Positions 5,724 through 25,813 of a stretch of 28,550 bases of DNA are shown here, in pieces; position 1 is the stretch's first letter, and every line of letters begins with the position of its first letter. Where the stretch lies: the NCBI GenBank assembly GCA_964415145.1, contig CAYPYH010000002.1, positions 1-28,550 on the forward strand, given 5' to 3'. This DNA is from an uncultured Gammaproteobacteria bacterium (lineage in GTDB: Bacteria; Patescibacteriota; Patescibacteriia; UBA9934). The notes beneath the pieces were generated by a model. That model saw only the letters and a list, made by a program, of their open reading frames with translations. It searched no databases and was not told the DNA's origin. Position numbers and translations under genes: made by a program.

Positions 5724-6302
5724 TCAGTATGGCGCCTTAGTAGTCGATTTAAGAGCTGCGGTGAGCGTATTGCAAAGAGTCTTTGCGAGGGATCCGTAAA
5801 AAACTATTGCGACAGCAAAAAGATACATAACACATAAGGCACCCATAATGCCACCTCGTGTATTTCCTGGAGCAATGGGTTCAATGGCGAGTACGATTAT
5901 TCCTATAAAAAGTGTGAGCGTGGGGAGCGTGAGATAGAGACCAAGAATCCGCAAGAGGCTTTGGGGTTTTGTATTTGTTTTGCGTAGCGTGCGTGTCCCG
6001 TGTGATATGAGTTGGAAGAGGAGGCTGACAATAAGATGTGCGCGCAGCATGGTGGACCAAAAAAGTGGGTCATTTGAGGTAATACTTACAGCGTCTAGGC
6101 CTAAGAGGGTAAAAATTTGTTGATACAAACCTTGGTCGAATGATGCATGTGAGAAGAGGACGGTTACCCAGACAAAGAGCAGGAGTACACTGATCCCTTG
6201 AACAAAGATGGCCGGAGTAAATTGAGTGAATGCAAAATAGTCGATGAGAAATATAAGAAGAGAACGTAGAATTTGGGATATGCGCACAGAGATATATTTC
6301 AT
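5724..6302 (-). CDS. Hypothetical multi-pass membrane protein
   Basis: About 192-aa ORF with 4-5 hydrophobic segments and no recognisable family motif. ATG 6302 is preferred over TTG 6320. Confidence 0.65.
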   Translation of the reverse strand: MKYISVRISQILRSLLIFLIDYFAFTQFTPAIFVQGISVLLLFVWVTVLFSHASFDQGLYQQIFTLLGLDAVSITSNDPLFWSTMLRAHLIVSLLFQLISHGTRTLRKTNTKPQSLLRILGLYLTLPTLTLFIGIIVLAIEPIAPGNTRGGIMGALCVMYLFAVAIVFYGSLAKTLCNTLTAALKSTTKAPY

Positions 6303-9300: not shown

Positions 9301-10892
9301 CAGTCGAGGTAGGGGACGATACGGCAGATTTAAGTTATGTAGACGAAAATGCATTGGTATTAAATGGGGGATCTATTGTGGACATGAGTGCTAATGTGGC
9401 AGTTATTACACTTCCTGCTTTAGGGTCAATGAGTTCACTGGGGGGACATACGGATATTCGTATTCACACGAGTATTCCTGCGCTTGCTGAGGTAACTCCA
9501 ATTGGTACATATACATTAAATGCAAACCCGACATATGTATTTAGTACAGACGAAGAGGGAAGTATTGTATATGGGGGAGATTGTTCGAGCACTACTGCCT
9601 ATGCAGCTGTGGGGAATAATTCTATTCAATTTAATGCACTTACCGAAGGAGCACATACAAATTGTACGATTACGGTCACGGATTATGCGGGAAATATAAG
9701 TGCGACGCTTGCTATTTCTTCATTTGAAATCAATATTACCGAGCCGGCGATGGTTCAGGTAATTCCTGCGGCACATGGTATTACTCGCGAATCTAGTCGA
9801 TCGGTTTATATTCTCTTTTCAGAGCCAATGGATCCAACTACATTTGCTATTGCAGACGATAATTCTAATTTATACGAAGCGCCGGTATGGAGCGATGATT
9901 ATCGTTCGGTTACGATTGCGCATGCAAAATGGACTGCGGCACTCATTGCAGTGAGTGTGGACGCAGAAAATACATTTGGTGTGAGCTTGAGCGCTCCTGC
10001 GGCATGGTCTTTTACCTTGGAAGGTGCTCGTAGTAATCAGCTTTCGAGCACTTGCGCATTTCAGTCACTTAGTAGTCCATGGCAGCAAAATAATTCTTTG
10101 GAATTTGCGTGGATTGCAGACGCACCCGAAATGAACCATACGGATCTTTTATACTCGCTAGATAATCGCGCTACATGGACCACAATGGCGTCCGTACCCA
10201 ATCCTGCACGTGCCTTTGTTTGGAATCTGTATGGACTTTTTCCAGAAGGAACCAATATTTATATACAAATGTTCTGTGGCGCGGAGGATGGTTCGGTTCT
10301 TGGAGGTGATGAAGAATTATTTATTGTTCCAGGAGAGGATGGTGCGTTGATAGAATCTCCTGGTGAAGATCAGTCTAGCGAGGGTCAACCTGTGGAACCG
10401 GAAGTGCTAAGTCCATTTGTATTTAACCCCGAAGAAGAGCGGCGCGGAGTTTTGGATATCAATGAAGATAAATCATCAGTAGAGGGTGTGCGCGCAAGTG
10501 GCTGCGGGGGTGCGAACTTAATCAAAAGCTCTACCGAGCCAACCATTTACTTCTGTGGTCGAGACGGACTACGTCACCCATTTCCAGACGTCAACACATA
10601 TCGTGGGTGGTATAGAAATTTCCTTCGTATACGTGTGGTGGATAGCGATGTGCTGAATGGTATTCGACTTGGTTCAAACGTGACCCATAGACCCGGAGTG
10701 TATTTGGTAAAATTCCCTTTGAGTGAAAAGGTATATGCGGTGTCTAAAGGGGGCGTATTGCACTGGGTGACCACAGAGGAAATGGCGACTCAATTGTACG
10801 GAGAGAAATGGAACTCTTTCGTGGTAGATATAGACCAAGTACTGTACTCGAATTACAAGATAGGAGAACCGATTAGTTCTGACGCGCCATAA
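6378..10892 (+). CDS. Large secreted Ig-like repeat surface protein/adhesin with a shared C-terminal domain
   Basis: Signal/TM ending AHA. Three SGSGT..L.F.YTV..GD..DLDY repeats, two TD.AGN repeats, and an SbsA/Big_5-like FSEPMD domain. TATAAT at 6354-6359 supports ATG 6378 rather than 6273. Confidence 0.85.
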   Translation: MQLTLQTWGQKVLMGCILAGALALGFMWWSGSAHAAFIQSATGTKTSNQATPASVSATLATSPVAGQLLIAMVGANGNATITGPAGWSTAINQSGTPSQAIFYKIAAGTELTVTSTVNANPGSIGIQVFVYSGNTTSFAEVSSATGTSAAPNGGSVTTTDANELVFSAFTLNTNVTTANTSWNDGGEGFAERADVQTGGAAARRAGYTSGDNLTNSAGSHGVTTATSASSTWRGQTVRFRTKTSVADVTSSLENGTYGAGQVVPIQITFSRAVTVNTIGGTPELGLNNGAHPRYSSGSGTNTLTFNYTIGSGGDIVDLDYAAIDALSLARGTILDDVNSAAVLTLPVPSMVGSLGFNKDIAIHTGTPTFSLQYYADSDLTVSLGDHPHLAVGTYYIAVIADEVLEGAPTISIHAAGTENDVTDGATVLVYGNTYRYARTVVYDAAANGEVASEVHITGTDAAGNESINAHPSNMTTVVAYIDTVAPAAPVIESISSNNYVSATEKSNIIVTGTAEADSLVSVTLSDGTNSRTQTQQLSGGSTIFSVGIDGLLATPAALEDGTLTPSVTATDIATNVSLADTAPVAIQDSIAPSLGSVSIASNNVNPAYAKAGDIVTLTFTSSEDLSTPSVTFNGAPVSVSGSGTSWTASRTMTLADAEGAMSVSISYNDLAQNPGAPITNTMDGSSVTFEMTPPILSEISPVATPANDSTPQYTFSSSEAGAITYGGSCMSAASSAFVGPNIITFNELADGVYLDCTVRVTDLAGNISAVLNVSSFTVDTSAAAVLDIHSENTDGVYHESDIITIHVEFDETVYASGAPFIALNASGSAVATYFNGSGTDFLIFHYTVALGDVVADLDYTSTTALSLNGGAITDAAGSPANTVFPAIGAPGSLGQNSTIEIDASIPDTNAPVVTSVSSMNADGLYGVEDTVTVIVQFDEVVEVTGTPQLNLAIGGGRYVDYVSGSGSGSLLFTFTVEVGDDTADLSYVDENALVLNGGSIVDMSANVAVITLPALGSMSSLGGHTDIRIHTSIPALAEVTPIGTYTLNANPTYVFSTDEEGSIVYGGDCSSTTAYAAVGNNSIQFNALTEGAHTNCTITVTDYAGNISATLAISSFEINITEPAMVQVIPAAHGITRESSRSVYILFSEPMDPTTFAIADDNSNLYEAPVWSDDYRSVTIAHAKWTAALIAVSVDAENTFGVSLSAPAAWSFTLEGARSNQLSSTCAFQSLSSPWQQNNSLEFAWIADAPEMNHTDLLYSLDNRATWTTMASVPNPARAFVWNLYGLFPEGTNIYIQMFCGAEDGSVLGGDEELFIVPGEDGALIESPGEDQSSEGQPVEPEVLSPFVFNPEEERRGVLDINEDKSSVEGVRASGCGGANLIKSSTEPTIYFCGRDGLRHPFPDVNTYRGWYRNFLRIRVVDSDVLNGIRLGSNVTHRPGVYLVKFPLSEKVYAVSKGGVLHWVTTEEMATQLYGEKWNSFVVDIDQVLYSNYKIGEPISSDAP

Positions 10893-12168
10893 AATCCACC
10901 ACGGCCTGGTCTAAGATAGCATCTTTCTTTTGGAGGGGCTTGAGTAGGACCAGGCCTTTGAGTGTTGTGCAGCGACTTAATGCTACATAGAGTTGACCAT
11001 GTGCAAAGGCGCCCCAGCCCATGTCGACCAAGACGCGGTCGAATGTTTTTCCTTGAGCTTTGTGAATGGTGACGGCCCATGCGAGCGTAATTGGATACTG
11101 TGTATACGAACCCATGACATGTTGTACGAGATTTCCGGCCGAGTCTTGAAAATATTGAAACAGTTCCCATTTGTATTGTTGTACCGAAACCACTTTGCCG
11201 TCTTCAAGTTCAATATCGAGCGTAGGGATTTTTGAAAGTCCTTTTGTGTGAATGCGTGTCACGGTCCCGAGTGTTCCGTTCACCCAGCGCTTTTCGGCGT
11301 CATTAATCGTAAACATAATGCGCGCACCTTCTTTAATAGAAATGAGTGCTTCGGACGGCATACGACGGTCGGGTAATTCGCCCGACGCATATGCTTTTAG
11401 CTTCCATGCTTTTCCAGAGAGGCGGCGTAATTCATTGTCATTGCGCTGTTGGGCGATTTTATTCGTTGTGGTCAGATGAATAAAATCGGGCTCTTCGCGC
11501 GGATCAAAGTACGGGTCGTGGCGTTCATTCCATGCGTCGATTGAGTCCTGGGTGAGTGTGCGCGTGCGTACTTTTTCTAAAAGATCTACAAAAGCTTTTT
11601 CTTTTTGACGGTGTACTGTTTTTAATTCAATCATGCGCATGCCGATATGTTGCATGACGTTCGCTGAAAAGAAATACGGAGAAGAAAATTCGGTCGTAAA
11701 GCGATCCGTTTCTTCGCTTGTTACAATAGGAGGAAGTTGGAAGAGGTCGCCAATAAAGATCATTTGTACGCCTCCAAATGGGTCATGTGGGCGTCCGCGG
11801 TTTAAGCGAAGTGCGCGGTCTACACAGTCCAATAAATCCGCGCGCACCATTGAAATTTCATCAATCACAATTGTTTCAATCGCCTTGAACATAGGGATCG
11901 AGTCGGCAGAGGCTTTACGCACCATGCTTTCGTGAATAGATGGGTGAAACCCAAAAAAGGAGTGAATGGTTTGTCCGCGTACATTTAAAGCGGCAACTCC
12001 GGTGGGAGCTAATACGACATGTCGCTTTTTTGTTTTCTCTCGGAAGTATTGAAAAAGGGTCGATTTTCCTGTTCCTGCGCGCCCAGTGATAAATATATTA
12101 TTGTCCGTTTCGTTCATGGCCGTGAATGCGTCTTTGAATTCCTTTCCAATCTTAATTTCTTGTTTCAT
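10873..12168 (-). CDS. PIF1/RecD-like SF1B DNA helicase
   Basis: Walker A ITGRAGTGKST, APTGVAA, TIHSFF, IDEISMV, GDLFQLPP, NGTLG and QYPITLAWAVTIHKAQGKTFD..GQLYVALSR. Likely start MKQEIKIGK at 12168, with TACAAT 10 nt upstream. Confidence 0.92.
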   Translation of the reverse strand: MKQEIKIGKEFKDAFTAMNETDNNIFITGRAGTGKSTLFQYFREKTKKRHVVLAPTGVAALNVRGQTIHSFFGFHPSIHESMVRKASADSIPMFKAIETIVIDEISMVRADLLDCVDRALRLNRGRPHDPFGGVQMIFIGDLFQLPPIVTSEETDRFTTEFSSPYFFSANVMQHIGMRMIELKTVHRQKEKAFVDLLEKVRTRTLTQDSIDAWNERHDPYFDPREEPDFIHLTTTNKIAQQRNDNELRRLSGKAWKLKAYASGELPDRRMPSEALISIKEGARIMFTINDAEKRWVNGTLGTVTRIHTKGLSKIPTLDIELEDGKVVSVQQYKWELFQYFQDSAGNLVQHVMGSYTQYPITLAWAVTIHKAQGKTFDRVLVDMGWGAFAHGQLYVALSRCTTLKGLVLLKPLQKKDAILDQAVVDFMARQN

Positions 12169-12264
12169 ACCGATGGCTATTGTATCAGACTTTGCGATAA
12201 TGACTGACCTGTGACGGCTTGACAGATGGGGTATTTTGAGGTATCGGTATGAATAGGAGCGATC

Positions 12265-12912
12265 ATGAACAGACTTCAGTTCTTTACAGGGATTCCGGCG
12301 ATGCCTCAGTGGCAGCGCCAACGGATTCATTGGGCATACGACGATGCCAAGAAATGGCACGCGGATCAGATGCGCGACGGAGGCGAGCGGTACTTCGAGC
12401 ATGTGCGTCGGGCAGCTCAGGTTCTGATCGACCTGGGGTATGTCGGGTACGAACTGATCGTTGTGCTGATCCTGCACGATCTGCTCGAAGATACCAACTA
12501 TGCGCCGTCGAAGCTGGAGCAGACCTTTGGTCCCGAGATCGCGCGCAAGGTCCTGACCCTGTCCAAGACCTACGGATTGGAAGACCCGCTTACGGGATTC
12601 CTGGTACGACTTCCGAAGCGTTCCAAGGGAGACTACTTCGAGGGCATCCGTGGTGGTGGTAGGGATGTCGTGCTCGCCAAAGGGGCGGATCGTTACGACA
12701 ACCTGACCGATCTGATCGATCCGCCCGAAGGGTCCGAGTGGTACTCCTCGCACCGTAGAGCGAAGAAAGTGGAAGAGACGCGCGAATGGATCATTCCCCT
12801 GGTCGGACAGCATGACCAGCGCTTAGCTCAGATGCTGCGCCATCGCTGTGATCTGATCGGGGCGAGAGTCGGAATGACCATCGAATTGACTTCGGACACG
12901 AATCCCGATTAG
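12265..12912 (+). CDS. Stand-alone RelA/SpoT-type HD domain protein (small alarmone hydrolase/Mesh1-like), GC-rich
   Basis: AKKWH..QMRDGGERYFEHV, ILHDLLEDT, V..LSK and KGADRYDNL motifs. AGGAG at 12255-12259. Confidence 0.8.
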   Translation: MNRLQFFTGIPAMPQWQRQRIHWAYDDAKKWHADQMRDGGERYFEHVRRAAQVLIDLGYVGYELIVVLILHDLLEDTNYAPSKLEQTFGPEIARKVLTLSKTYGLEDPLTGFLVRLPKRSKGDYFEGIRGGGRDVVLAKGADRYDNLTDLIDPPEGSEWYSSHRRAKKVEETREWIIPLVGQHDQRLAQMLRHRCDLIGARVGMTIELTSDTNPD

Positions 12913-12959
12913 CGCCTTGTTCTGCATCACATTCTTACCGGGCATCTGCTCGGTTCTTT

Positions 12960-13400
12960 TTATTCTAATCGAAGCGCTTTTGCGGGCGCAGCTATTGCCT
13001 GCGGATTTGTTTTCCACGCGTCAGAGATATCCGCATATAGTTCTAGCTCATTTTCGTCTGGATCAAGAATGTAAATCCCGTGGGTGATTGTGTGGTCCGT
13101 TGCACCAAGAATACGCACTCCTTTTTCGACAAGTTCCTTATAGACATCGCGTAATGCTTGCGCGCCATCACCAATTTTAAATCCTATATGGTAGAGTCCT
13201 GGTTCTGGGTGATGTACTTCGCGCAAAGATCCACCTATTTCAATAAGTAGTAATTCATGATGTGTTCTGCCAGAAGAAAACATAGCGCCACCACGAAAAT
13301 CAGCAACTTGCGTAAAGCCAAGTACGTCGCGATAAAATGCGGCAGAAATTTCTACACTTCTTACGTACAGTACGATATGTCCCAGTTCTTTAATTTGCAT
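12960..13400 (-). CDS. VOC/glyoxalase family protein (catechol dioxygenase-like)
   Basis: LGHIVLYV..SAAFYRDVLGF, HHELLL, GLYHIGF, IYILDPDENELELY. ATG 13400 is preferred. Confidence 0.88.
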   Translation of the reverse strand: MQIKELGHIVLYVRSVEISAAFYRDVLGFTQVADFRGGAMFSSGRTHHELLLIEIGGSLREVHHPEPGLYHIGFKIGDGAQALRDVYKELVEKGVRILGATDHTITHGIYILDPDENELELYADISDAWKTNPQAIAAPAKALRLE

Positions 13401-13797
13401 AGAGATTAATACAGTCATTCCATTGCTGTGTTGTGACCGGCTGCACAGAGAGGCGTGAGTTTTTTATAAGAACCATGTCTGCGAGCGCCTTAATTTTTTT
13501 AATGTCTTGAAGCGAAACCGGATTTTTGAGCGCTTTTACCGGTACAATGTCTACCGTGCTCCAATCGCCGTCCGTGGCTGTTGGATCTGTATAAGATTCT
13601 TTCGCAATTTTTACAATCCCTTGAATCGCTTTTTCTTTTCCTGAGTAATAGAAAAAAGCTAAATCACCTTTCTTCATGTTACGTAGATTATTGCGTGCTT
13701 GAAAATTGCGCACGCCGGTCCAAGACGTTTGTGTATCTTTCAAAAGGTCTTCCCAACTATACGTGCCTGGTTCTGTTTTTATAAGCCAATACTGCAT
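13390..13797 (-). CDS. EVE domain protein
   Basis: YWLIKTEP..YSWEDL...WTGVRNFQARNNLR.MKKGDLAFFY..RLSVQPV. Confidence 0.93.
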   Translation of the reverse strand: MQYWLIKTEPGTYSWEDLLKDTQTSWTGVRNFQARNNLRNMKKGDLAFFYYSGKEKAIQGIVKIAKESYTDPTATDGDWSTVDIVPVKALKNPVSLQDIKKIKALADMVLIKNSRLSVQPVTTQQWNDCINLYAN

Positions 13798-13809
13798 AGC
13801 GTAAGATGT

Positions 13810-14166
13810 CTACTTTAGGAAATAGCTAATGATTAATACTTCAACAAGAATCACAAGAGCGAGTCCAAATTGAAAAGAAGTTTTAGATGTTTTGTGATGA
13901 AGGAGATACATGGACAAGAGCGCGCCACCCGCACCACCTGCAAATGCAGCTAGGTAGAGTATGTATTCTGGAATGCGTCGCTCCTGTTGAATAGCGAGCA
14001 TTTTGTCGACGCCGTACAAGATAAATGTAGAGCCGTTCAAGCTTGCGATTAAAAGTAGTTGCCAGGGTGTTTCAAATTTCCACACGAGGAATCCAAATGA
14101 ACAGATAATAAGTACTGCCCAAAGAATCAGTGCGCGTGTATAAACAGAAAGTGGCTTACGACGCAT
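13810..14166 (-). CDS. DUF1294 family membrane protein
   Basis: FILYGVDK..A....RRIPE..L..AAFAGGA.GALL.M....HKT.K..F. Confidence 0.88.
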   Translation of the reverse strand: MRRKPLSVYTRALILWAVLIICSFGFLVWKFETPWQLLLIASLNGSTFILYGVDKMLAIQQERRIPEYILYLAAFAGGAGGALLSMYLLHHKTSKTSFQFGLALVILVEVLIISYFLK

Positions 14167-14175
14167 AAGGATTTA

Positions 14176-14748
14176 TTATCTTCGAGCCAAGGCGTCGTCA
14201 ATCGCTCTTAGGATTTCGCTACGGTGTTCTTTCATGGTGATTGAATGGGGAATGAATGTTGCAAAATCGTAGGTAGAGCTGAGTTTCTGCATAAGAGACG
14301 CAACTTTATTGTTTGAAAGTTTATCTACTTTGTTTACGATGATGATAAGTGGAATTCCAAGGGAACGTAAGAATTCAAACATTTCTATATCGAGTTCTCC
14401 TGGTCCGACCATGGCGTCAATGATTACCAAAACAAGAGATAGTTGTTCGGTGCTAGAAATATAGTCAGTAATAAGATCGGCGAATTGGCCACGTTTTGCT
14501 TTAATGCGCGTAAATCCGTATCCTGGAAGATCAACCATGTAGTACTTGTGGTCGATATCATATAAATTCACGGTTTCCGTTCTCCCGGCTTTTGAACTGG
14601 TATGCGCGAGATTTTTCTTGCCCGTCAGGTGATTTACAAGAGATGATTTTCCAACATTAGAACGACCAATAATCGCCACATGTGGGCGGCCATTATTGGG
14701 GAGTTCCTCAAGACGTGTAGTGCTTTGGATGAATTCTGCAGATTTCAT
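14176..14748 (-). CDS. engB: Ribosome biogenesis GTPase YihA/YsxC (EngB)
   Basis: G1 GRSNVGKSSLVN, GRT, VDLPGYG, NKVDK. Confidence 0.95.
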   Translation of the reverse strand: MKSAEFIQSTTRLEELPNNGRPHVAIIGRSNVGKSSLVNHLTGKKNLAHTSSKAGRTETVNLYDIDHKYYMVDLPGYGFTRIKAKRGQFADLITDYISSTEQLSLVLVIIDAMVGPGELDIEMFEFLRSLGIPLIIIVNKVDKLSNNKVASLMQKLSSTYDFATFIPHSITMKEHRSEILRAIDDALARR

Positions 14749-14782
14749 AAATTGGATTTGGCTTTAGGTTAGCATGGTTTGT

Positions 14783-14815
14783 AAAAAAAGTCCCCAGCAC
14801 GCATGGGTGTGGGGA
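14783..14815 (-). terminator. Intrinsic terminator of the NT5C gene
   Basis: TCCCCA-g-CAC-loop-GTG-TGGGGA stem (14791-14815) with an A7 run at 14783-14789, which is a U-tail on the minus strand. Confidence 0.65.
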
Positions 14816-14828
14816 GGTAATCACTAAG

Positions 14829-15431
14829 CTATTGCTCGAGGAGGGGAATGACCACGCGCTTCCAGTCCCTCCAGTTGTTCATGCGGTCTTGGAAGGAGTC
14901 GGCAGCGGCCTGGTTCCATTCGTGCATGAAGAGCACCTGGCTCCACCGAGGCTCGAGGCCCTTGGGGGCCTTCGCGGCATGCGGATTGTCGTCGATCAGC
15001 ACATCACCGTCGACTCGGAACTTCTCGCTCGCGATGATCGTGCGGTTGAGCCAGCTTTTCCCAAGGTTCCATTCCACCCACTGGAGCTTCTCGCTCGCAC
15101 AGGTGGGGCTCTTGTGCAGAGGCGCGGTCAAAAGCGCAACGTCGTATCCGCGCTTGAGCATGCCTTCCAGTGCGCTGAGTGCACCCGGGATTATGGGAAG
15201 ATTGGCGAAGAACCCAGGGCCACAGGTGAGCGCCTGAACTTGATCGGCCACTGCGTCGCCATGAGCGACACGGTAAGACTCGACAATGCTCCAAGACTCC
15301 ATCTGACTCATTGGCAAGTGGAGCTCTGGAGGGAGGACTTCCAGGGTGCGCGCATAGAATGCTCGCTTGTAGTTTGCAAGAACATCGTCCATGTCGACCA
15401 GGATTCGGCGAGGGGATCTTTGAGGACTCAT
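14829..15431 (-). CDS. 5'(3')-deoxyribonucleotidase, NT5C/HAD family, GC-rich
   Basis: ILVDMDDVLA (DxD), GFFANLPIIPGA, ASEK..WV...LG, DVLIDDNP, and W...LF...WN. GGAG 6 nt upstream. Confidence 0.88.
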   Translation of the reverse strand: MSPQRSPRRILVDMDDVLANYKRAFYARTLEVLPPELHLPMSQMESWSIVESYRVAHGDAVADQVQALTCGPGFFANLPIIPGALSALEGMLKRGYDVALLTAPLHKSPTCASEKLQWVEWNLGKSWLNRTIIASEKFRVDGDVLIDDNPHAAKAPKGLEPRWSQVLFMHEWNQAAADSFQDRMNNWRDWKRVVIPLLEQ

Positions 15432-15524
15432 GAGTTACTCCGGGGGAAAGGGAAGACTCGCATGTAAGCAATATTCTTGGATTATGTCAATCCCTCAGCT
15501 CTCGTTTAATAATCTTGCCAATAT

Positions 15525-15555
15525 AAAATACCCAGTCGCAATGACTGGATATTTT
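15525..15555 (-). terminator. Terminator downstream of tRNA-Trp
   Basis: Minus strand AAATATCCAGTC-ATTGC-GACTGGGTATTT. The single non-Watson-Crick pair is G-U on this strand. Confidence 0.6.
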
Positions 15556-15556
15556 A

Positions 15557-15630
15557 TGGCAGGGGCGGCCAGAATCGAACTGACAACATAGGTTTTGGAG
15601 ACCCGTGTGATACCACTTCACCACGCCCCT
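15557..15630 (-). tRNA. trnW: tRNA-Trp (anticodon CCA), CCA end encoded
   Basis: Cloverleaf AGGGGCG/CGCCCCT, D-stem GTGA/TCAC, loop CTCCAAA, T-arm GTCAG-TTCGATT-CTGGC, and G-CCA end; 74 nt. Confidence 0.96.
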
Positions 15631-15651
15631 ATGCGTGTAATTTGTGCCGAT

Positions 15652-15680
15652 AATGTACCACTTAAAAAGAAAGGGGTCAA
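15652..15680 (-). promoter_or_regulatory. Sigma70 promoter of tRNA-Trp
   Basis: TTGACC(15680-15675)-N17-TACATT(15657-15652). Confidence 0.6.
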
Positions 15681-15720
15681 TATGTTATAATCACATAGCG
15701 TTACAGCGCCATTTTGTATT

Positions 15721-18700
15721 ATGCCGCACAAAAAGATCATCTACAGTATTTTAGGGTGTTTTGTAGTAGGAATTATTTCCGTAACTTTTGTTCGTGCATT
15801 TATTGCGACAGATTTTAGTTTTACGGGTACTGGACATACATCAGCCTTTGCGGGAGACTCAAATATTCTTTTGGCGGATTTTACGGGACCATCGCCAGCC
15901 ACGGATACGATATTGCTAGACGGTGCGGCGGCAGATCCGGTTGCGGGAGATCCATTAAGTTCTTTTGCGGCAAGTATTGTTTTTTTAGATACAGACGGTG
16001 CGGCTGGTTTTGGGGGAGGGGAGCCAGTGATTAGTTCGGCTAATGCTGCACTTACGTCTGCGGACACGGTGCTTACGTCGAGCACGATTACTGTTTTGAA
16101 TGCTTTTCCGACCATTGAATCGGGGCAGACTCTGTATGGATTCGTTGATACAGATACCGACACGATTCTTGACGGTAATGAAGATATTGTTCACCAGGTG
16201 ATTAGCGGAAATGCGGAAACATTAACGAGTGGAGATGCTCTGCGCATTGTAGCCCCAAGCGATGACATGTTTTATGTTGCAGATTCTGGAACGTCAACGT
16301 ACGACGCGCTTACACCAAATGCGATTTTGCATTATCTGGGGCCCAGTGAAAATCCATACGCGGTTGTACAGGCAGGTACTTTAAATTTCCATCCGGCTAC
16401 ATTAGCGGACAATATTTGCGTGGAGGATTCAGATTCATCGGGCACTATTAGTAGTGGTGATGATTTTTGGCGCGATCTTAACGGCACGGACTGCACTTCT
16501 TTTGATACAGGAATTGACGTTATTGTTAATGGTGAAGCGGGTATTATGGATTTAATTTTTTATGAATTAAACGGATATGAGCCGAGTTCGGGATATGGTC
16601 CTGTAACACCCGGATACATTGATGGTAATGGAAATGGGCTATATGACTGCACGCGTACTTCGTGCGAGGCGTTTGTGGTGGCTGCTGGTAATGTAGGGGT
16701 AGATGGAGTATTTACTGGGGGATTAGTGGCTAATCCTTCACCGGTTCTTGTGGACGGTGTTGGAGCCATTGCTACAGATTGGGTTGATGACCCAACGCTC
16801 ATGAACGCCTATGATTTATCTACAGTGACCATTGGGGGTGAAACGCGTTTTGCGTATGTGGATTCAGACGCGGACACTATATATGACAGTGCTGAAGACA
16901 TGGTGGAATTGGTAAAATCGGGGAATGCGGAAACATTTTCTACAGGGGATCTTTTCTTAAATATGACCAATGCGGGTTGGTTTGCAGACATAAACAACAA
17001 TGATACATATTCTGTAGTGACCGATATTATGATCGGTTCCTTGGATGCAAATTTGAATGCGGGCGCGCTTAATGGGACGGGTGTAGATGAAGTCGTGATT
17101 CCGTCTAATAATGCAACAGATCTTTCAACATTCGATGTGGACGATGTGTATTTTGATGCAGATGCTAATGTGGCGTATACCGATGGTGAAGATATCGTGG
17201 CCGATGTCGATGCATCCGGTTATTTCAATGCGGACGATCTGATGAGTATTTCTTTTAGCAATACGGTGTCCGATTACCCACTTGAAAATGCAGACTTAGA
17301 GCATTTATATGTGTATAAAAAGGCAGGGGCAGATTGTGCCGGATCGGGTACAGACTCTTTGCTGGGAGATTTAGCTGCGAGTCCATTCTTTAGTACAGCG
17401 ATCACGATTACCGATTCCTTGTTCACTGCGCAGACTTCTTATTGTGTGTATGCAGATATTGCAGCAGGAGCACGCGCTGGAAGATACGTATCGCTTGCTA
17501 TTCCACAAAATGGAGCAACGTTTTTGGGGGCGGTAGATTCTCCTTCGGATGCATTATTTAGTATGGGAAATAGCAGTTCGTACACGAGTGTCTCGCGTCT
17601 TATGTCTGCCACTATGGTTCCTGGCGACGTTGCTGCTAATGCGACAACGACATATACGACCGTGTTTACCACTTCAGCCGACATTACAACAGGGGACGAC
17701 ATTAATATCGTGTTCCCTTCGGCATACGATGTTACTGGCGCAAGCGTTGTATGTACGGATGATGGAGGGGCTTCCGCAGGAACATCGTCAATTAACGGGC
17801 AAATTGTTTCGCGTAATCTTTCTGCAGATATCGCGGCGGGATCATTGGTTTCATGCGTGGTTTCTGGCGTGGTGAATCCAGAAACGGCTGGTGCATATAG
17901 TGCGTTTATTGTGAGTACGGTGCGCCAGGCGATCTACGACAGCATACGTGCAGATGTTGATCTTACATTCTCAGCGGTTACCATTACGGCGTCCACCATA
18001 CGGCATAATCGTCAGCAAATAGTAGACCCTATTGTGGCGCCCGTTGTAACGATTACAACTCCGGCTAATGGAGTATTTATTCAAGGAGCGGTTATGATTA
18101 CGTGGGAGACGACAGGTACTTCACCAGGATTTGCTAATATCACATACACGGCGAATGGGATTGATTATGCGATCGCGCGCAATATTAGTGACTCGGGTCA
18201 TTATCTTTGGAGTATTCCAAGTCGTCTCATAGGGCAGGCGGTCGACATTGAAGTTGCACTTACTGATCTTTCCAGCGTTCAAACAGATGATTTGGTTTCG
18301 GTGCTCATTGGGGAAGATGGGATAGAGGAAGAAATTATTTCTGAAGAGGATCTAGATTCGAAGTGGTATATGCCAGATATTGGAACCAGATTGGTGAAGA
18401 TTCCTGAATCTCCAATTGTCTATTATGTAGGGTATGACCATCGTTTACTACGACCATTCCTGACAGAAGATATTTTCTTTTCATGGCGTTCGAATTTTGA
18501 CAAAGTTCGTACCCCAGAGCCGGTGGAATTAGCGCAATTTCCAATGGGGGCACCAATGCCTCCCATGCCGGGCACCTACTTCATAAAGTCGCCAACAAGT
18601 CCTAAGGTATATGTATTGGAACCTATTAAAACAAATAAAACGCAACCGATTTTACACTGGATTGCGTCGGAAGAAGTAGCGGAGCTGTATTTTGGGGGCA

Positions 18701-18810
18701 ACTGGAGCGCGCGCGTGCTCGATGTTCCTGCCGAAGTAATTGATCTTTCACCAAAGGGATATGATTTACTTGGCACCGAAGAGGAACCGTGGTTCATTGC
18801 GATTTACTAG
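15721..18810 (+). CDS. Large acidic secreted surface protein with Dx[DN]xDG-like Ca-binding motifs and the shared C-terminal domain
   Basis: N-terminal signal/TM and at least 8 Dx[DN]x[DNS]-type loops (e.g. DSDSSGTISSGDD, DGNGNGLYD, DVDASGYFNADD). Extended -10 TGtTATAAT at 15683-15691. Confidence 0.85.
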   Translation: MPHKKIIYSILGCFVVGIISVTFVRAFIATDFSFTGTGHTSAFAGDSNILLADFTGPSPATDTILLDGAAADPVAGDPLSSFAASIVFLDTDGAAGFGGGEPVISSANAALTSADTVLTSSTITVLNAFPTIESGQTLYGFVDTDTDTILDGNEDIVHQVISGNAETLTSGDALRIVAPSDDMFYVADSGTSTYDALTPNAILHYLGPSENPYAVVQAGTLNFHPATLADNICVEDSDSSGTISSGDDFWRDLNGTDCTSFDTGIDVIVNGEAGIMDLIFYELNGYEPSSGYGPVTPGYIDGNGNGLYDCTRTSCEAFVVAAGNVGVDGVFTGGLVANPSPVLVDGVGAIATDWVDDPTLMNAYDLSTVTIGGETRFAYVDSDADTIYDSAEDMVELVKSGNAETFSTGDLFLNMTNAGWFADINNNDTYSVVTDIMIGSLDANLNAGALNGTGVDEVVIPSNNATDLSTFDVDDVYFDADANVAYTDGEDIVADVDASGYFNADDLMSISFSNTVSDYPLENADLEHLYVYKKAGADCAGSGTDSLLGDLAASPFFSTAITITDSLFTAQTSYCVYADIAAGARAGRYVSLAIPQNGATFLGAVDSPSDALFSMGNSSSYTSVSRLMSATMVPGDVAANATTTYTTVFTTSADITTGDDINIVFPSAYDVTGASVVCTDDGGASAGTSSINGQIVSRNLSADIAAGSLVSCVVSGVVNPETAGAYSAFIVSTVRQAIYDSIRADVDLTFSAVTITASTIRHNRQQIVDPIVAPVVTITTPANGVFIQGAVMITWETTGTSPGFANITYTANGIDYAIARNISDSGHYLWSIPSRLIGQAVDIEVALTDLSSVQTDDLVSVLIGEDGIEEEIISEEDLDSKWYMPDIGTRLVKIPESPIVYYVGYDHRLLRPFLTEDIFFSWRSNFDKVRTPEPVELAQFPMGAPMPPMPGTYFIKSPTSPKVYVLEPIKTNKTQPILHWIASEEVAELYFGGNWSARVLDVPAEVIDLSPKGYDLLGTEEEPWFIAIY

Positions 18811-18823
18811 AAGAGGAAATAAT

Positions 18824-18865
18824 AAAAAGGGCCCGCCTTCGGCTGTAATGCCTTAGGCGGGCTTT
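18824..18865. terminator. Bidirectional hairpin terminator between convergent genes
   Basis: AAAGGGCCCGCCT...AGGCGGGCTTT inverted repeat with an inner GGC/GCC pair. Confidence 0.65.
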
Positions 18866-18873
18866 CGCGTGTC

Positions 18874-20664
18874 TTAGAGCGAGATCAGGCTCGGAAAGTG
18901 ACCTTCGTGGTCACGTTCGACCGTCGTCACGTCGCCATTTGTCCAGTGGACTTCGAGCGAGGTGACATGGGGAGGAATGGACTTTACCGGAGGACTGAAT
19001 CCAGCGGTACCGCCACTCGAGCTGATCACGGTCGCCTGGCGCGTCTCGCCAGCGATCATCAGGACCATGCTTCCGTAGGCACCATAGGGACCATTGCGGA
19101 ATGCCACCTCCTGCGTCCCTGCGGCACAAGTGCCGTTGATCAGGGCGCGCATGTCGGTCAGACCGACCGGAAGTGGAACAAGATCCACGCAGGAATCACC
19201 ATTGATGTCGACGGGTCCGATCAGACCACGTTCCTGCACATTGGCGTCCAGTGCGTCGTCGTGCACTCGTTCCCAGGTCTCGCCGTTGTCGGAGAACCGG
19301 TAGAGGTGCAGCTGTTGCGGCCACTGGGTCCAGGGTACGGCATGCTCGAGGTCGCGAACTTCCTCGTAAGCGTGTTCGTATCCTTCAATGTACACCACGT
19401 AGTCTTCGAAGGCATTGACCGCCCAACTCACATTGTGGCGAGTGGGCCCCGCAAGGGTCTGCATGCTTTCAGGAAGCATCCATGAGCTTCCGAAACAGGC
19501 GACGCTTTCGGTGGGTCCAGCAACGCGGCTTGCGGTGCAGACATCGTCGGAACCTACGTCGCTCGAAGCGACTTCCAGGACGCCGTCCTTGTTCGAGTCG
19601 AAAAGCGTGAAGCCCATGGGACTTCCACCAAGACCAGGGCAGGAGACCTGCGTCCAGTTCATGATGTCGCCTCGCCAGCACGAGGTGCCCCCGTTCTCGG
19701 GGTCATTGCGCTCAGAGCCGTCATAGGCGACCAAGAACAGGTTCTGTGTTCCGTCCTCACGCGGAGCGGTGAACACACCCGCATTGGTGTCGATGTCGGG
19801 CGGGAGCCAGTCTGGCTCGTACACCAGTCGTTCGTTCTCCCAAGTGAAGACGGTGGGCGGACATGCGTAGCCACCAAACACCACTTCGGGCACCAGGTCA
19901 CGATTGAGGTCCGCGAACTGCACGTTCATGGGGATGCAGGGCAGTGGGATCGCATCGCTCAGACCAACGTCTTCGGTCTTATCGACCCAGTGTGGGAACA
20001 TGTCCTCTTCGTCCCACTCTTGCGAGTAGAAGTAGAGCTTGAGACCGGCACGAATCTTGTCGGGGTACAAGCCCGCGACCATGCTCATGTAGTTCTCGTC
20101 CATGCCCTCGATGCTCACGATCAGTAGGTCGGGCTTGTCGTCGCCGTTGATGTACTCGAGGGCGAGTGCGGTGACCTGATCGGGCACATGCGGAAGGTTG
20201 AGCTCAGCGGGGCAGGAGTCGTAGACGCCGTCGTCGTTGACACACAGGTAGGCCGGATTCGCACCACCACTTTGCGTGAGCATCGTGGCGGGGAATTCCG
20301 TGAACACCATGCCGTCGCGCTTGCCGCCGGCCAGATTGCCAAGGGCGGCTTGCATCCAGGGCTCGGCGTCGGGAGTCTGCTGTCCCTCTTCGAGGGGTGG
20401 CATCTCGGGAATCGAGTAGCCGTCGGCCACGCGTCGATCGATGGCGCAATTGCTCCATTCGCCTGGGGCTGCCGGACAAGGGAACGTGTACGCGCGTTCG
20501 CGCGGGAGCACTTCGGGATTTTCGACTTCGTGGGGCAGAAAGTCTGGAACGAAGTCGTGCACATTGATCGTGCCCGACGTCGTGTTCTGGTCACTGTCCG
20601 GATTCGAGCAGGCGCTCAGCACGAGGCTGAACAGTAGGGCGATCAGAAGGAACGGGTTTCGCAT
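18874..20664 (-). CDS. FG-GAP/VCBS-repeat lipoprotein with ASPIC/UnbV-like C-terminus (CRTAC1-like), GC-rich
   Basis: Lipobox MRNPFLLIALLFSLVLSA-C. Repeats INGDDKPDL, DLNRDLVPEV, DSNKDGVLEV and DINGDSCVDL. C-terminal G..V.....Q....SSSGG...LEVHWTNG. GGAGG 5 nt before ATG 20664. Confidence 0.78.
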   Translation of the reverse strand: MRNPFLLIALLFSLVLSACSNPDSDQNTTSGTINVHDFVPDFLPHEVENPEVLPRERAYTFPCPAAPGEWSNCAIDRRVADGYSIPEMPPLEEGQQTPDAEPWMQAALGNLAGGKRDGMVFTEFPATMLTQSGGANPAYLCVNDDGVYDSCPAELNLPHVPDQVTALALEYINGDDKPDLLIVSIEGMDENYMSMVAGLYPDKIRAGLKLYFYSQEWDEEDMFPHWVDKTEDVGLSDAIPLPCIPMNVQFADLNRDLVPEVVFGGYACPPTVFTWENERLVYEPDWLPPDIDTNAGVFTAPREDGTQNLFLVAYDGSERNDPENGGTSCWRGDIMNWTQVSCPGLGGSPMGFTLFDSNKDGVLEVASSDVGSDDVCTASRVAGPTESVACFGSSWMLPESMQTLAGPTRHNVSWAVNAFEDYVVYIEGYEHAYEEVRDLEHAVPWTQWPQQLHLYRFSDNGETWERVHDDALDANVQERGLIGPVDINGDSCVDLVPLPVGLTDMRALINGTCAAGTQEVAFRNGPYGAYGSMVLMIAGETRQATVISSSGGTAGFSPPVKSIPPHVTSLEVHWTNGDVTTVERDHEGHFPSLISL

Positions 20665-20730
20665 GGGGCCCTCCAAGGGCGGGAATGGATCTGTTTGGGG
20701 AAGGACAAAGAGGGTTCTTGCGAACAGCCT

Positions 20731-20759
20731 AAACTATACCATTTTTCCACTTTTGTCAA
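20731..20759 (-). promoter_or_regulatory. Sigma70 promoter of the FG-GAP lipoprotein
   Basis: TTGACA-N17-TAGTTT (or N15-TATAGT with TGn). Confidence 0.6.
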
Positions 20760-20782
20760 TAGAGGGGTCTTTTTATTGAAAT

Positions 20783-20846
20783 AAAAAAAAGAGGCTGACC
20801 ACACGCTTGTACGCGTGGGTCAGCAGGGTCGCGCAGCGCGCGACCC
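20783..20846 (-). terminator. Double-hairpin terminator of the CotH-like gene
   Basis: Directly after the TAA: GGGTCGCGC-gct-GCGCGACCC, then GCTGACC-CACGC-loop-GCGTG-t-GGTCAGC, then a U8 run. Confidence 0.75.
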
Positions 20847-22343
20847 TTAGGGGGCTTGGATCACGATGTTGGTGTCGCCCGTGTCCACGACCAGATCGCT
20901 GTCGAGCACGAGGTCCGTGTCGAAGTCCATGCCCGTGTCGCCGTCGCCGAGTACCCACGGCGCTCGGTATTGCTCCAGCTCCTCGCGGGCATTCGCTGCA
21001 CGCGTGGAGTAGAATTCGTACAAGATGTCGTAGCGCTCGTCGTCAGGTGTTCGCCATGCGCCGTCGCCACCGTCATTCCCCCACGGGTACACGATGGCCT
21101 GGAGCTCGTCGCGCAACGGGGCGATGATCGTGTTCGCGGCGTCGAGCGCCTCGAGCTCACTGATCAGTTCCTCACATCGCGCCACGGTCTGCGCCCAGCA
21201 CGACTCGTCGTACTGGCAGCCCATCGACATTGCGTTGTCGCCGTAGAGCGGGACGTAGGTGTAGGCGCCGTCCCACGCGACTCCGCCCGAGATGTCGGTG
21301 GAGTACGGGTGGTAGCGGAACTTCCCGTCCTGCCCTTCGGTCAGCAGGATGTTGTTCATGTTGTGCAGCGCGTCGTCACCGATCCACAGCAGCCACTCGC
21401 TGCACTGGAAAGTGCGATAGGCGGGCCAGTCGAAGTAGGGCGCGGTCGCCTCCTCGAATTCCTGGCTGCCCATGCTGGCGGTCACGACGTCGGCGAACTC
21501 GTAGAGTCGCGTCTCGTCGCATTCGCTGAGCTCGCACTGCGAAGCGAAGCTGTTCGCCGCCTCGTTGGTGATGTCGGCCCAGACCGCTTCCCAGATGTTG
21601 TTGCAGCCTCCGCCGAAGTAGTCTGCACGGTCGCCCTTGCAGAAGTCCTTCTTGTACTTCTCGATCCCGATGTAGGGGAGGAGGAGATCGGAGTTCTGCC
21701 AACCACTACCTCCCACGAGGATGTAGGTGGTCTTGGGAACCTGGTAGCCGAAGGCATCGTAGACCATGAGCGCCGAGCGTTCACCCAGCATCGACCCCAC
21801 CTGGCCATTGTTGAGGCGCAGGCGGGAGAATCCACCCAGGAGCTGATCCTCGGTGACTTCGTCCACCTTCAGGTTGAAGTTGGGGATGGTGTCGGTGGCC
21901 CACGGGTAGCCGCTGGACTGTCCGGCCAGCTTGGCCTCGATCTGACCGTAGTCCGTGCTGCGCCCATCGGGGAGCTGCGCGTACAGGTGGTCGATCAGGA
22001 TGGTCGGGGTCTCGTCGTTCACGGTGTAGACGGGGCCGAACCACTCCCCGTTCTGCCAGTCCTCGTTCATGGTCTCGATGGTCTCCGGGGAGGCGTCGAT
22101 CCACAGCACGAGGCCGGGGGTCTCGAACAGGTCGAAGTCCAGGTCCGCCACGGCCGTGTTCGGGGTGATCGGAGCGTGGTACTCCATGTCCGTCTCGCCC
22201 GGGTCGGCGTCCGTGTCGTCCTCCACAGTGTACACATTGGTGACGGTGTCACCTTCGTGCGTGTGGAAGTGTTCGTTCGTCACTTCCGTGGTGCATCCAC
22301 CGGCCAGAAGGAGACCTGTCAGCATCAGTCGAATTCGGTTCAC
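20847..22343 (-). CDS. CotH-like kinase domain lipoprotein, GC-rich
   Basis: Lipobox (V/M)NRIRLMLTGLLLAGG-C. GQSS....PNFNLK, RLRLNN...LGERSA, VPKTTY, IGDDALHNMNN and PYSTD match the CotH kinase layout. GGAGG 4 nt before GTG 22343; the track start at 22367 is an alternative. Confidence 0.72.
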   Translation of the reverse strand: MNRIRLMLTGLLLAGGCTTEVTNEHFHTHEGDTVTNVYTVEDDTDADPGETDMEYHAPITPNTAVADLDFDLFETPGLVLWIDASPETIETMNEDWQNGEWFGPVYTVNDETPTILIDHLYAQLPDGRSTDYGQIEAKLAGQSSGYPWATDTIPNFNLKVDEVTEDQLLGGFSRLRLNNGQVGSMLGERSALMVYDAFGYQVPKTTYILVGGSGWQNSDLLLPYIGIEKYKKDFCKGDRADYFGGGCNNIWEAVWADITNEAANSFASQCELSECDETRLYEFADVVTASMGSQEFEEATAPYFDWPAYRTFQCSEWLLWIGDDALHNMNNILLTEGQDGKFRYHPYSTDISGGVAWDGAYTYVPLYGDNAMSMGCQYDESCWAQTVARCEELISELEALDAANTIIAPLRDELQAIVYPWGNDGGDGAWRTPDDERYDILYEFYSTRAANAREELEQYRAPWVLGDGDTGMDFDTDLVLDSDLVVDTGDTNIVIQAP

Positions 22344-22372
22344 TTGCCCTCCAAGTTGATTGGGCATGGGCG

Positions 22373-22401
22373 AAGCTACCGTATTTATTGTGTTTTGTCA
22401 A
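22373..22401 (-). promoter_or_regulatory. Sigma70 promoter of the CotH-like gene
   Basis: TTGACA(22401-22396)-N17-TAGCTT(22378-22373). Confidence 0.65.
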
Positions 22402-22402
22402 T

Positions 22403-22434
22403 AGAAAGAGCCCGGCATATGCCGGGCTCTTTCT
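22403..22434. terminator. Perfect 32-bp palindrome; likely terminator of the 396-aa gene
   Basis: AGAAAGAGCCCGGCAT|ATGCCGGGCTCTTTCT, 2 nt after the stop at 22437. Confidence 0.7.
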
Positions 22435-22436
22435 CA

Positions 22437-23627
22437 TTAGTTCTCTGTTTCATCTTCGTCGTCTCCGTGGTCCGCTTCATCTTCCATTTCTGATTCGTCT
22501 TCTGTTTCATCATCCTGCGAATCCTCTTGTTCGTCTTCAGCTCTTTCATCATTTGAATCATCGTCCGACTCATCTTCGTCCTCATCTTCTACCTCACTGT
22601 CATCCGATAGAATGTCCTCAGGACGACCTTCTATATATTGCCCTGCGCGTGACTGATCCGCAAACCATTTTGCGTCATGAGCGGCTTCTGAGGCAGCGTC
22701 ATATTCGCTAGCAGCAAGATGTGCTTTTGCCTGTGCAAGAAGATCCTTTGCCTGCGCGAGGATTTCACGTGCCTGGGTGACGTCTCGTTCGTCCGCTGCA
22801 CGTTGTGTGATCTTTTCTTCTGCGCGTGCAATGTGTTCTGAAGCATTGTCTATACGGTGCTGTGCACGTAGTGCAGGGGTGCGACCTTCATTGTCGTGGA
22901 GCTCTATCTCTATTTCCACTTCAACTTCTGCACCTTTTAGCTTAAGCTCTCGCACGAGCGCCTCAAGATCGGTTGCCGTTAGGTCTTCTAGCGAGCGAAT
23001 ACGGATATGGATTTTTGTTTCCATATCGTCAATATCTTCTGCGGCATCGTCTAGAATATCTTCCTCATCGTTAGATTCAAGAAGATCATCCACTTCAATG
23101 GCGTCCCCGTCATCTGAAATACGGAAAATATCGCCGCTCTTGTCTTTAAGAATCATTCCAGGGGGCAATGTGTCAGCAGTAAGAGGTTCACCTACCGTAT
23201 AGTGACTAAAGAATCCCTCAGGGAGATCGTCTACTTTTTGTGCCCAATCTGGTCCGAAGAATTTTATTGCAATTTCCTCAGTGGGGATTTCACGTAGTAC
23301 ATCGCCTGGACTGATTACATATGTAGCAGGGGCGGATGCGAGTTTTACCAAGCGAACACCGGAGCGATATTTGACTACACCTCCAAATGGAATTGTAGCT
23401 AGGTCGGTGCAGGAAATCGTTTGAACGCTGTCAAAAGTATTGCGCCAGGTATTGAATATTTTTTCATTTGGGAACGAGTATCGCTTCCCGTCTTGTGAAA
23501 TATAGTAGACGGTAGAAATATCAGGACAGCGCACAAGATCTCCATTGGTGGCTGCATGAGCAACCTGCGCCGCGTACAGGTGAGGCGTAAGGAGCATGAC
23601 TGCGGCAAATAATGAGAGTTTTTTCAT
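22437..23627 (-). CDS. Secreted protein: shared two-repeat domain (N-terminal), helical region and very acidic tail
   Basis: Signal peptide MKKLSLFAAVMLLTPHLYAAQVAHA, DGKRYSFPNEKIFNTW..FFGPDW domain, and a D/E-rich last ~55 aa. TATAAT 8 nt before the ATG. Confidence 0.85.
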   Translation of the reverse strand: MKKLSLFAAVMLLTPHLYAAQVAHAATNGDLVRCPDISTVYYISQDGKRYSFPNEKIFNTWRNTFDSVQTISCTDLATIPFGGVVKYRSGVRLVKLASAPATYVISPGDVLREIPTEEIAIKFFGPDWAQKVDDLPEGFFSHYTVGEPLTADTLPPGMILKDKSGDIFRISDDGDAIEVDDLLESNDEEDILDDAAEDIDDMETKIHIRIRSLEDLTATDLEALVRELKLKGAEVEVEIEIELHDNEGRTPALRAQHRIDNASEHIARAEEKITQRAADERDVTQAREILAQAKDLLAQAKAHLAASEYDAASEAAHDAKWFADQSRAGQYIEGRPEDILSDDSEVEDEDEDESDDDSNDERAEDEQEDSQDDETEDESEMEDEADHGDDEDETEN

Positions 23628-24679: not shown

Positions 24680-24778
24680 GAGCCCCGTGTGTGGATAACT
24701 AAAAACCAGCTTGCTATGACTATCTAAAATGCGTGCACCTTTCAAAATGATTCAATTTTTGGTAACTTGGGGCTTGTT

Positions 24779-25813
24779 ATGCAGAAGTCGGTACGTATTC
24801 CTTTGAATGGTGAGAGTAATCGGCTTTGTGATATTTTGGCTGAAATGCTCGTGGAGGAATTTACGCGTCGTGACGCGTCTACACGTTGCCGGTTGCGTGT
24901 ATTTGGGGGCGAAGGAATGATTATGGTAGCCGGTCGTATTCAATCAACGGCAGAATTAGATGTAAGTACGCTCGTATCAAAAGCATATATTGAGCTCACA
25001 GGAAAATCAGATATCGAACCATTCGTACATATTGAGCAAACGGGCAAAGAGGCATTTGATCGCTCGACATGGGTGAATAAGGAGGTGGGTGTTGCGTATG
25101 GATTTGCAACCAAAGAAACGGTCGAGCAATTACCTTTGCCTCTTGTGCTTGCAAGGCGCATTGAACAGCGTATACGAGATGCGCGTATGACCGACCCATT
25201 GTGCACATGGCTTGGGGCGGACGGAGCAATCGTGGTAACCACAAATAAAAAACAATGTACTGCCGTACAAATTGAAGTGGAGTATCCAGAGGCAATGTTA
25301 ATAGGCGACGTAAAGCAGGTTATTTTTGAACGGATCATTCAGCCGTTATTAATTGAGACAGATCAGACACGTGTGGAGATTGTTGGACGTTTGCCTGCAC
25401 AGTCAGGATTTATGTATGCACCGGGCGCTACTGGAATTGTAAGCGAATCCATGACCTATGCAGGACTTATTCCAAATGCAAGTACCTCTTTTGTTGGAAA
25501 AGATATTTACGCGCCGGCACGATTAGCTGTATATGAAGCACGCCGTCTCGCAAAAGAATTGTTGGCAAAATCTGATGCGCCCAATGTACTCGTGCAACTT
25601 CCGTATACAGAAGAGCGAATCGGTGTGGATCATACGTATGCGATTTCGGGTGCCGGCGAAGATCTTTCTTATTTAGCTCAAGCAAATCCAAAGCGCGCGG
25701 AAGATTTTGTGCAGCGATTCGATCTTGCAAAAGCGCCACTTCGTTTGCTTGCAGAACACAATCAGTTCATTCCAGAGCTTGCACCTTGGGAGATGACGGG
25801 CGACGCGCTATAA
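24779..25813 (+). CDS. Degenerate S-adenosylmethionine synthetase (MetK)-like protein
   Basis: Collinear with MetK: LCD.....L, YGFATKET..LPLP..LA.RI, II.P.L, SFVGKD, A.Y.AR..AK and terminal PWE. Most catalytic motifs are substituted. Confidence 0.8.
   Translation: MQKSVRIPLNGESNRLCDILAEMLVEEFTRRDASTRCRLRVFGGEGMIMVAGRIQSTAELDVSTLVSKAYIELTGKSDIEPFVHIEQTGKEAFDRSTWVNKEVGVAYGFATKETVEQLPLPLVLARRIEQRIRDARMTDPLCTWLGADGAIVVTTNKKQCTAVQIEVEYPEAMLIGDVKQVIFERIIQPLLIETDQTRVEIVGRLPAQSGFMYAPGATGIVSESMTYAGLIPNASTSFVGKDIYAPARLAVYEARRLAKELLAKSDAPNVLVQLPYTEERIGVDHTYAISGAGEDLSYLAQANPKRAEDFVQRFDLAKAPLRLLAEHNQFIPELAPWEMTGDAL

Follow-up and report, generated by a model that had tools for sequence, protein, structure and literature searches.

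SLH, LysM, CW_binding_1/2, SH3b, PG_binding_1 and WxL domains are the classical means by which monoderm bacteria anchor proteins non-covalently to the wall. They share a modular logic, in that they occupy the ends of unrelated exported proteins and have several carriers per genome. Here we analyze a 28,550-nucleotide stretch of DNA (hereafter the window; contig CAYPYH010000002.1 of assembly GCA_964415145.1, from a Patescibacteria genome), in which three genes encode exported proteins, P0001, P0002 and P0003, that carry a common module of 125–130 residues at one end. The module follows the same logic as the classical anchors, but has another fold and another repeat length. We infer that it also has the same role, and that it probably acts as a non-covalent cell-wall anchor, which retains Sec-exported proteins at the cell surface.

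The closest structural neighbors of the module are the repeats R1–R4 of EccB, which belongs to the type VII (ESX) secretion system (PF05108; 3x3m, 4kk7, 5ebc and 7nps). The repeats of EccB1 have already been compared to PlyCB, which forms a ring of eight monomers (PMC4769845). PlyCB is the wall-binding subunit of the streptococcal phage lysin PlyC, and recognizes a polyrhamnose wall polysaccharide (bioRxiv 10.1101/2021.03.19.436156). Another neighbor is LysIME-EF1, a two-component endolysin produced from a single gene, whose C-terminal domain is a wall-binding domain (PMC7098653). This domain has also been deposited as a separate chain of 70 residues.

An earlier note on this DNA, made by reading the sequence by eye, had proposed that the C-termini of P0001 and P0002 and the N-terminus of P0003 are copies of one domain consisting of two similar halves. 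Pairwise BLASTP comparisons of the end segments bore out their homology (E 4e-15 with 30% identity over 115 residues, E 7e-26 with 31% over 130 residues and E 1e-19 with 34% over 113 residues), and the similarity of the three segments is far above chance. A profile built from the three copies located the module at 10497–10886, 18373–18801 and 23148–23558 (E 1e-66 to 1e-70). The alignment in the note had started at positions 10515, 18388 and 23540, which correspond to residue 1415 of P0001, residue 890 of P0002 and residue 30 of P0003. The internal repetition was likewise recovered, as hhalign matched half 1 to half 2 with a probability of 90.7% (E 1.3e-6), and the two halves agree in predicted fold and in structural neighbors.

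Outside the module, the three proteins are mutually unrelated. Each begins, as judged by eye, with a hydrophobic signal-like segment, so that the picture of a portable terminal module on otherwise unrelated exported proteins was retained. The acidic linkers that the earlier note had reported for the two large proteins indeed adjoin the module, and one is visible in P0003 as well. However, the W-rich Ig-like domain that P0001 and P0002 were said to share upstream of the module did not hold up: BLASTP between the two proteins found nothing in this region, and the best local score was equaled by 220 of 1000 shuffles.

The longest open reading frame (ORF) of P0001 starts from a TTG codon at 6273, while the ATG at 6378 is the likelier start. 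Its signal-like segment ends in AHA at about 6482, and its passenger region contains Big_13 Ig-like repeats in the Pfam scan. P0002 has a hydrophobic signal or anchor segment at its N-terminus and matches Big_7 weakly at residues 774–831. Its unit B contains a six-residue insertion and ends in a short C-terminal tail, which also occurs in a contig-end fragment of the same genome (on contig C21). In P0003, the signal peptide is followed by the module and then by a long acidic, helical tail, for which the Pfam and NCBIfam scans returned no family match.

When the three proteins and nine module copies were scanned against Pfam and NCBIfam, no family was listed for the module up to E 10, in line with the note's failure to name one. 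Among the classical anchors, SLH, LysM, CW_binding_1/2, SH3b and PG_binding_1 were not listed by Pfam for any of these sequences. Weak rows for NdhS and Spin/Ssty, each for one copy, were judged to be noise. The sequence-profile matches of the module to PDB entries were spurious, as the antibody framework motif AVYYC was aligned to a VYY strand of the module.

The structure of the module was predicted with AlphaFold2 for residues 24–160 of P0003, using an alignment of 84 rows. The confident model (pLDDT 92.8, pTM 0.81), together with the alignments, indicates two units in tandem, each about 60 residues long; unit B modeled alone reached a pLDDT of 80.3. Both units conserve a basic residue in strand 1 and a tyrosine in strand 2 (R/K10 and Y18, K72 and Y80 in module numbering). 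Each predicted unit has the order β-β-β-α-β-α(-β), with a sheet of about four to five strands and two short helices, and the pattern occurs twice. A Foldseek search against the PDB gave nothing at E≤1e-3. The top rows, all with E>1e-3, were without exception EccB1, EccB3 or EccB5, the best being 7nps (E 3.4e-3), while 5ebc was superimposed with a probability of 1.0 and a root mean square deviation of 2.2 Å over 61 columns. LysIME-EF1 ranked after the EccB rows. The VIA aligner, an independent method run against 48,161 chains, returned the same six PDB entries for unit A and unit B. The modeled fold thus appears to have precedent, each half resembling an EccB repeat or a PlyCB-like unit. The C-terminal domain of a MACPF protein of Bacteroides thetaiotaomicron (3kk7) is also a fold neighbor, and the PF05108 profile had a sub-threshold match in the B. 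thetaiotaomicron control genome. These two observations hint that the small fold may belong to a wider superfamily.

The repeat of EccB, a unit of about 55 residues with a four-stranded sheet and two helices, is matched by the modeled unit, whereas the architecture around it differs. EccB possesses an N-terminal transmembrane helix, a central β-sheet core and four repeats, and its gene lies in an ESX locus. The module comprises two units and lacks both a core and a transmembrane helix of its own. PF05108 was absent both from an hmmscan of the nine module copies (E≤10) and from a six-frame search of the whole genome (E≤1). No ESX genes lie near the three window genes, whose neighbors are unrelated housekeeping and surface genes. 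EccB is a component of one machine, whereas the module is a mobile end domain on many proteins.

The match of the module unit to PlyCB (4f87) was weak, with 12% identity. Unlike the module with its two tandem units, PlyCB has one unit, which assembles into a ring of eight and has polyrhamnose as its ligand. The wall-binding domains of the enterococcal endolysins LysIME-EF1 (6ist) and Lys170 (7d55) have no detectable sequence similarity to the module and, unlike it, are phage-encoded, composed of a single unit and exclusively C-terminal. On the other hand, the partnership with peptidoglycan hydrolases that characterizes PlyCB and the enterococcal endolysins is also found for the module, with M23 peptidases in this genome and with M23, S11 and PGRP-type proteins elsewhere.

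The nearest structural neighbors are parts of oligomers, namely EccB in the ESX complex (7nps and 7np7), the PlyCB ring and LysIME-EF1. The modules might therefore bind one another, or an S-layer lattice, and dock enzymes and large proteins on a proteinaceous layer, which would resemble the octameric PlyCB ring or the paired EccB repeats within the ESX complex. Secreted proteins of 150–190 residues that consist of only a signal peptide and the module occur, in clusters of 77 and 126 members, and some proteins bear the module at both ends; both would suit such an assembly. Furthermore, a very acidic protein of 1200–1400 residues with an N-terminal module is conserved across the class and could itself be the layer. 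However, the fusions to wall-active enzymes (M23, S11 and PGRP) follow the classic pattern of wall-binding domains. Moreover, PlyCB and the enterococcal wall-binding domains oligomerize and yet bind the wall, so that assembly and anchoring are compatible with each other. As a replacement for wall anchoring, we regard assembly as unlikely.

The source assembly comprises 873,900 bases and is 95.6% complete. The three carriers counted in the earlier note are correct for the window, but genome-wide there are 9–11: the profile matched eleven places, corresponding to nine full modules, including the three of the window, and two proteins with single units. About 1% of the genes in this genome are thereby marked by the module. 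The passengers of the other copies, identified with Pfam, are given in the table below. The two single-unit proteins (L017 and L018) have two or three units in a row instead of a fused pair, placed after an M23 domain in L018 and after an N-terminal domain in L017 that belongs to no family, has no sequence relative in the PDB and may be a wall hydrolase. These arrays resemble most of the matches found outside the class.

Among the wall-related genes of the genome are four matches to the penicillin-binding protein (PBP) transpeptidase family, one sortase, an LCP-family ligase and a dTDP-sugar isomerase. Given the PBP transpeptidase matches and the LCP ligase, a peptidoglycan wall with attached polymers is plausible. 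SLH had no match in the source genome, and LysM was limited to one protein; the module is therefore the most abundant candidate wall anchor of this genome.

Anchoring agrees both with the fold neighbors, which are wall-binding domains of phage lysins and EccB repeats, and with the attachment of the module to wall enzymes (M23, S11 and PGRP-type). The carrier proteins would leave the cell via the Sec pathway by means of their N-terminal signal peptides, after which the module would form a non-covalent bond with an envelope polymer of the same cell, presumably peptidoglycan or a wall-attached glycopolymer. This binding would keep the attached enzyme or the large Ig-rich protein on the cell surface. 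A lineage-specific wall glycopolymer is at least as likely a ligand as peptidoglycan, because the full module is restricted to the class and occasionally co-occurs with PG_binding_1 or LysM. In this class of Patescibacteria, the module would thus fill the role that SLH, LysM, CW_binding and SH3b play in other monoderm bacteria.

A nine-copy profile, searched against 1.84 billion representative proteins, matched 6,722 clusters at E≤1e-3; of these, 4,592 remained at E≤1e-10 and 2,476 at E≤1e-30. For the relatives whose source names were examined, the only name was hypothetical protein. The module lies within 80 residues of the N-terminus, directly after the signal segment, in 98 of the best 149 representatives and within 30 residues of the C-terminus in 37; six have it at both ends, and in a handful it is internal. 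A strongly hydrophobic N-terminal segment is present in 118 of the 149, and several of the others are truncated. The Pfam partners, determined for 87 of these representatives, include Ig-like/Big, fn3, M23, trypsin-like proteases, GH10, ice-binding-like, PG_binding_1, cohesin and cupredoxin domains, and most of the carriers are not wall hydrolases. Among neighbors in the ESM Atlas and AlphaFold DB, further partners are peptidase S11, LysM, a PGRP-type protein, a serine protease and peptidase M1. No cytoplasmic partner domain was found among the partners identified in the source genome, in the representatives or in these database neighbors. Thus none of the outcomes by which the earlier note would have been refuted arose: the module matched no characterized family, its carriers were not cytoplasmic, and the three segments aligned significantly.

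These positions bear on the other role that the earlier note had offered, sorting, in analogy to the C-terminal domain (CTD) of the type IX secretion system. Such a signal, like the CTD or sortase signals, would be recognized by a dedicated export or attachment machine. The module is indeed terminal and common to diverse exported cargo, and the genome encodes one sortase. However, the type IX CTD is a strictly C-terminal tag, whereas the module may occupy either end, and sometimes both. It is, moreover, a well-folded two-unit domain of 125 residues that stands behind a normal Sec signal peptide. The three window genes have no conserved partner gene beside them, and an LPXTG-like motif is not among the conserved columns. 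Since two thirds of the copies are N-terminal, right after the signal peptide, a sorting role is very improbable, and only the anchoring half of that proposal is retained.

Patescibacteria presumably live on the surface of other microbes, and an 874-kb genome that is 95.6% complete has a size typical of a host-dependent lifestyle. The module might thus bind the wall or capsule of a host or partner cell instead of its own, as PlyCB and phage wall-binding domains recognize the walls of other cells, and the hydrolase partners (M23, S8 and GH10) could attack a host envelope. The layout of the carriers argues otherwise: in two thirds of them the module directly follows the signal peptide and the long Ig-rich part is distal, as expected for an anchor at the base rather than an adhesin at the tip. 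In addition, housekeeping-type partners such as cupredoxin and S11 carboxypeptidase work on the envelope of the cell that makes them, and the mean column identity of the module across many genera is 46%, whereas host-recognition domains usually diversify. An adhesin role therefore seems to us improbable.

Among 300 other genomes drawn evenly from the phylum of the window, matches were found in 15 of the 16 belonging to the same order or class, several of which had 7–13 matches (E down to 1e-64), as compared to 38 of the 284 outside the class. The outside matches mostly covered only profile positions 8–90, often in tandem arrays, and were weaker (E 1e-6 to 1e-13). Full modules thus occur chiefly in the class of Patescibacteria to which the window belongs, and since the matches beyond it are mostly partial, tandem and weaker, the fused two-unit module seems to have arisen at the level of this class, from a single repeat of wider distribution. 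In other genomes, module genes are often clustered (for example, on contig 11 of G258 and contig 3 of G004), which fits the presence of three copies within 13 kb of the window.

A search with eight close sequences found 549 genomic relatives, and the record titles of the best 80 read Candidatus Uhrbacteria, Falkowbacteria, Parcubacteria or Patescibacteria group. Titles such as uncultured Gammaproteobacteria, Acutalibacteraceae and Binatia would suggest a wide taxonomic range, but they belong to genomes of 1.0–1.6 Mb with 6–13 module copies, and we read them as mislabeled. Many relatives (L020, L024, L028, L030 and others) are titled uncultured Gammaproteobacteria bacterium isolate binchicken_... 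Two binchicken_ genomes that we checked are 1.0 and 1.5 Mb in size and contain 6 and 13 module copies; their titles look wrong or like placeholders for Patescibacteria genomes.

The best-scoring module sits, in many genomes of the class, on a protein of 1200–1400 residues. Its representative in the source genome (L014, identical to P0032) contains 17.4% D+E and 3.3% K+R, and has full-length relatives of 1200–1400 residues with 25–44% identity. As its acidic composition and N-terminal anchor layout recall S-layer proteins, we consider it a candidate S-layer or major surface protein. A broader scheme may be sketched tentatively. The module would be a class-specific envelope anchor, an SLH-like part that sits on a class-specific wall glycopolymer, with the acidic protein as the S-layer protein, and wall enzymes, proteases, redox proteins and adhesins would then have acquired this anchor as well. 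We hold this scheme to be possible, although less probable than anchoring as such.

The neighbors of the three window genes encode a two-component system, a PIF1-like helicase, an EngB-like GTPase, LexA and a MetK-like protein; these are unrelated, and no biogenesis partner stands out among them. The MetK-like ORF appears from its weak domain matches to be a divergent copy. The exceptions among the neighbors are two lipoprotein-like genes downstream of the P0003 gene, whose products show weak similarity to CotH in one case and an FG-GAP repeat in the other. The G+C content is 61% at 20–22 kb, as compared to about 46% elsewhere.

Table. Features of the window (positions without a contig handle) and other module carriers of the source genome (contig handles C3–C27)
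Feature	Location	Strand	Description
P0001 gene	6378..10892	+	1504-aa exported protein
P0001 module unit A	10494..10682	+	residues 1408–1470
P0001 module unit B	10683..10889	+	residues 1471–1539, C-terminus
P0002 gene	15721..18810	+	1029-aa exported protein
P0002 module unit A	18373..18558	+	residues 885–946
P0002 module unit B	18559..18807	+	residues 947–1029
P0003 gene	22437..23627	-	396-aa exported protein
P0003 module unit A	23370..23558	-	residues 24–86; copy used for the structure model
P0003 module unit B	23178..23369	-	residues 87–150
Two lipoprotein-like genes	18874–22367	-	downstream of the 396-aa gene; Cys after hydrophobic leader
MetK-like ORF	24767–25813	+	three S-adenosylmethionine synthetase domains matched weakly (E 1e-6 to 3e-10)
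M23 peptidase	C13		module C-terminal
Cupredoxin	C5		module N-terminal
1384-aa protein (L014)	C7:8082–12233		module N-terminal
S8 subtilase	C7		module C-terminal
309-aa protein, function unknown	C27		module C-terminal
Contig-end fragment	C21		resembles the end of P0002; module C-terminal
453-aa protein (L017)	C3:15906–17264		three single units
Second M23 peptidase (L018)	C18:10272–12056		single units

The module is a domain without a Pfam or NCBIfam model, while its fold is of a known kind and its role probably is too; a literature search combining the Candidate Phyla Radiation or Patescibacteria with wall-binding domains or EccB found no description of it. Patescibacteria account for a large share of bacterial diversity. 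To our knowledge, hardly anything has been established about the construction and decoration of their surface, through which they meet host cells. The module marks thousands of metagenomic protein clusters. A name for it would at once make the surface proteins of an entire class recognizable, and would draw attention to a candidate S-layer protein. A fusion of the module to green fluorescent protein would be a small, well-folded probe for labeling or capturing uncultured cells. The link in fold to the EccB repeats may, in turn, give context for the origin of a poorly understood ESX component.

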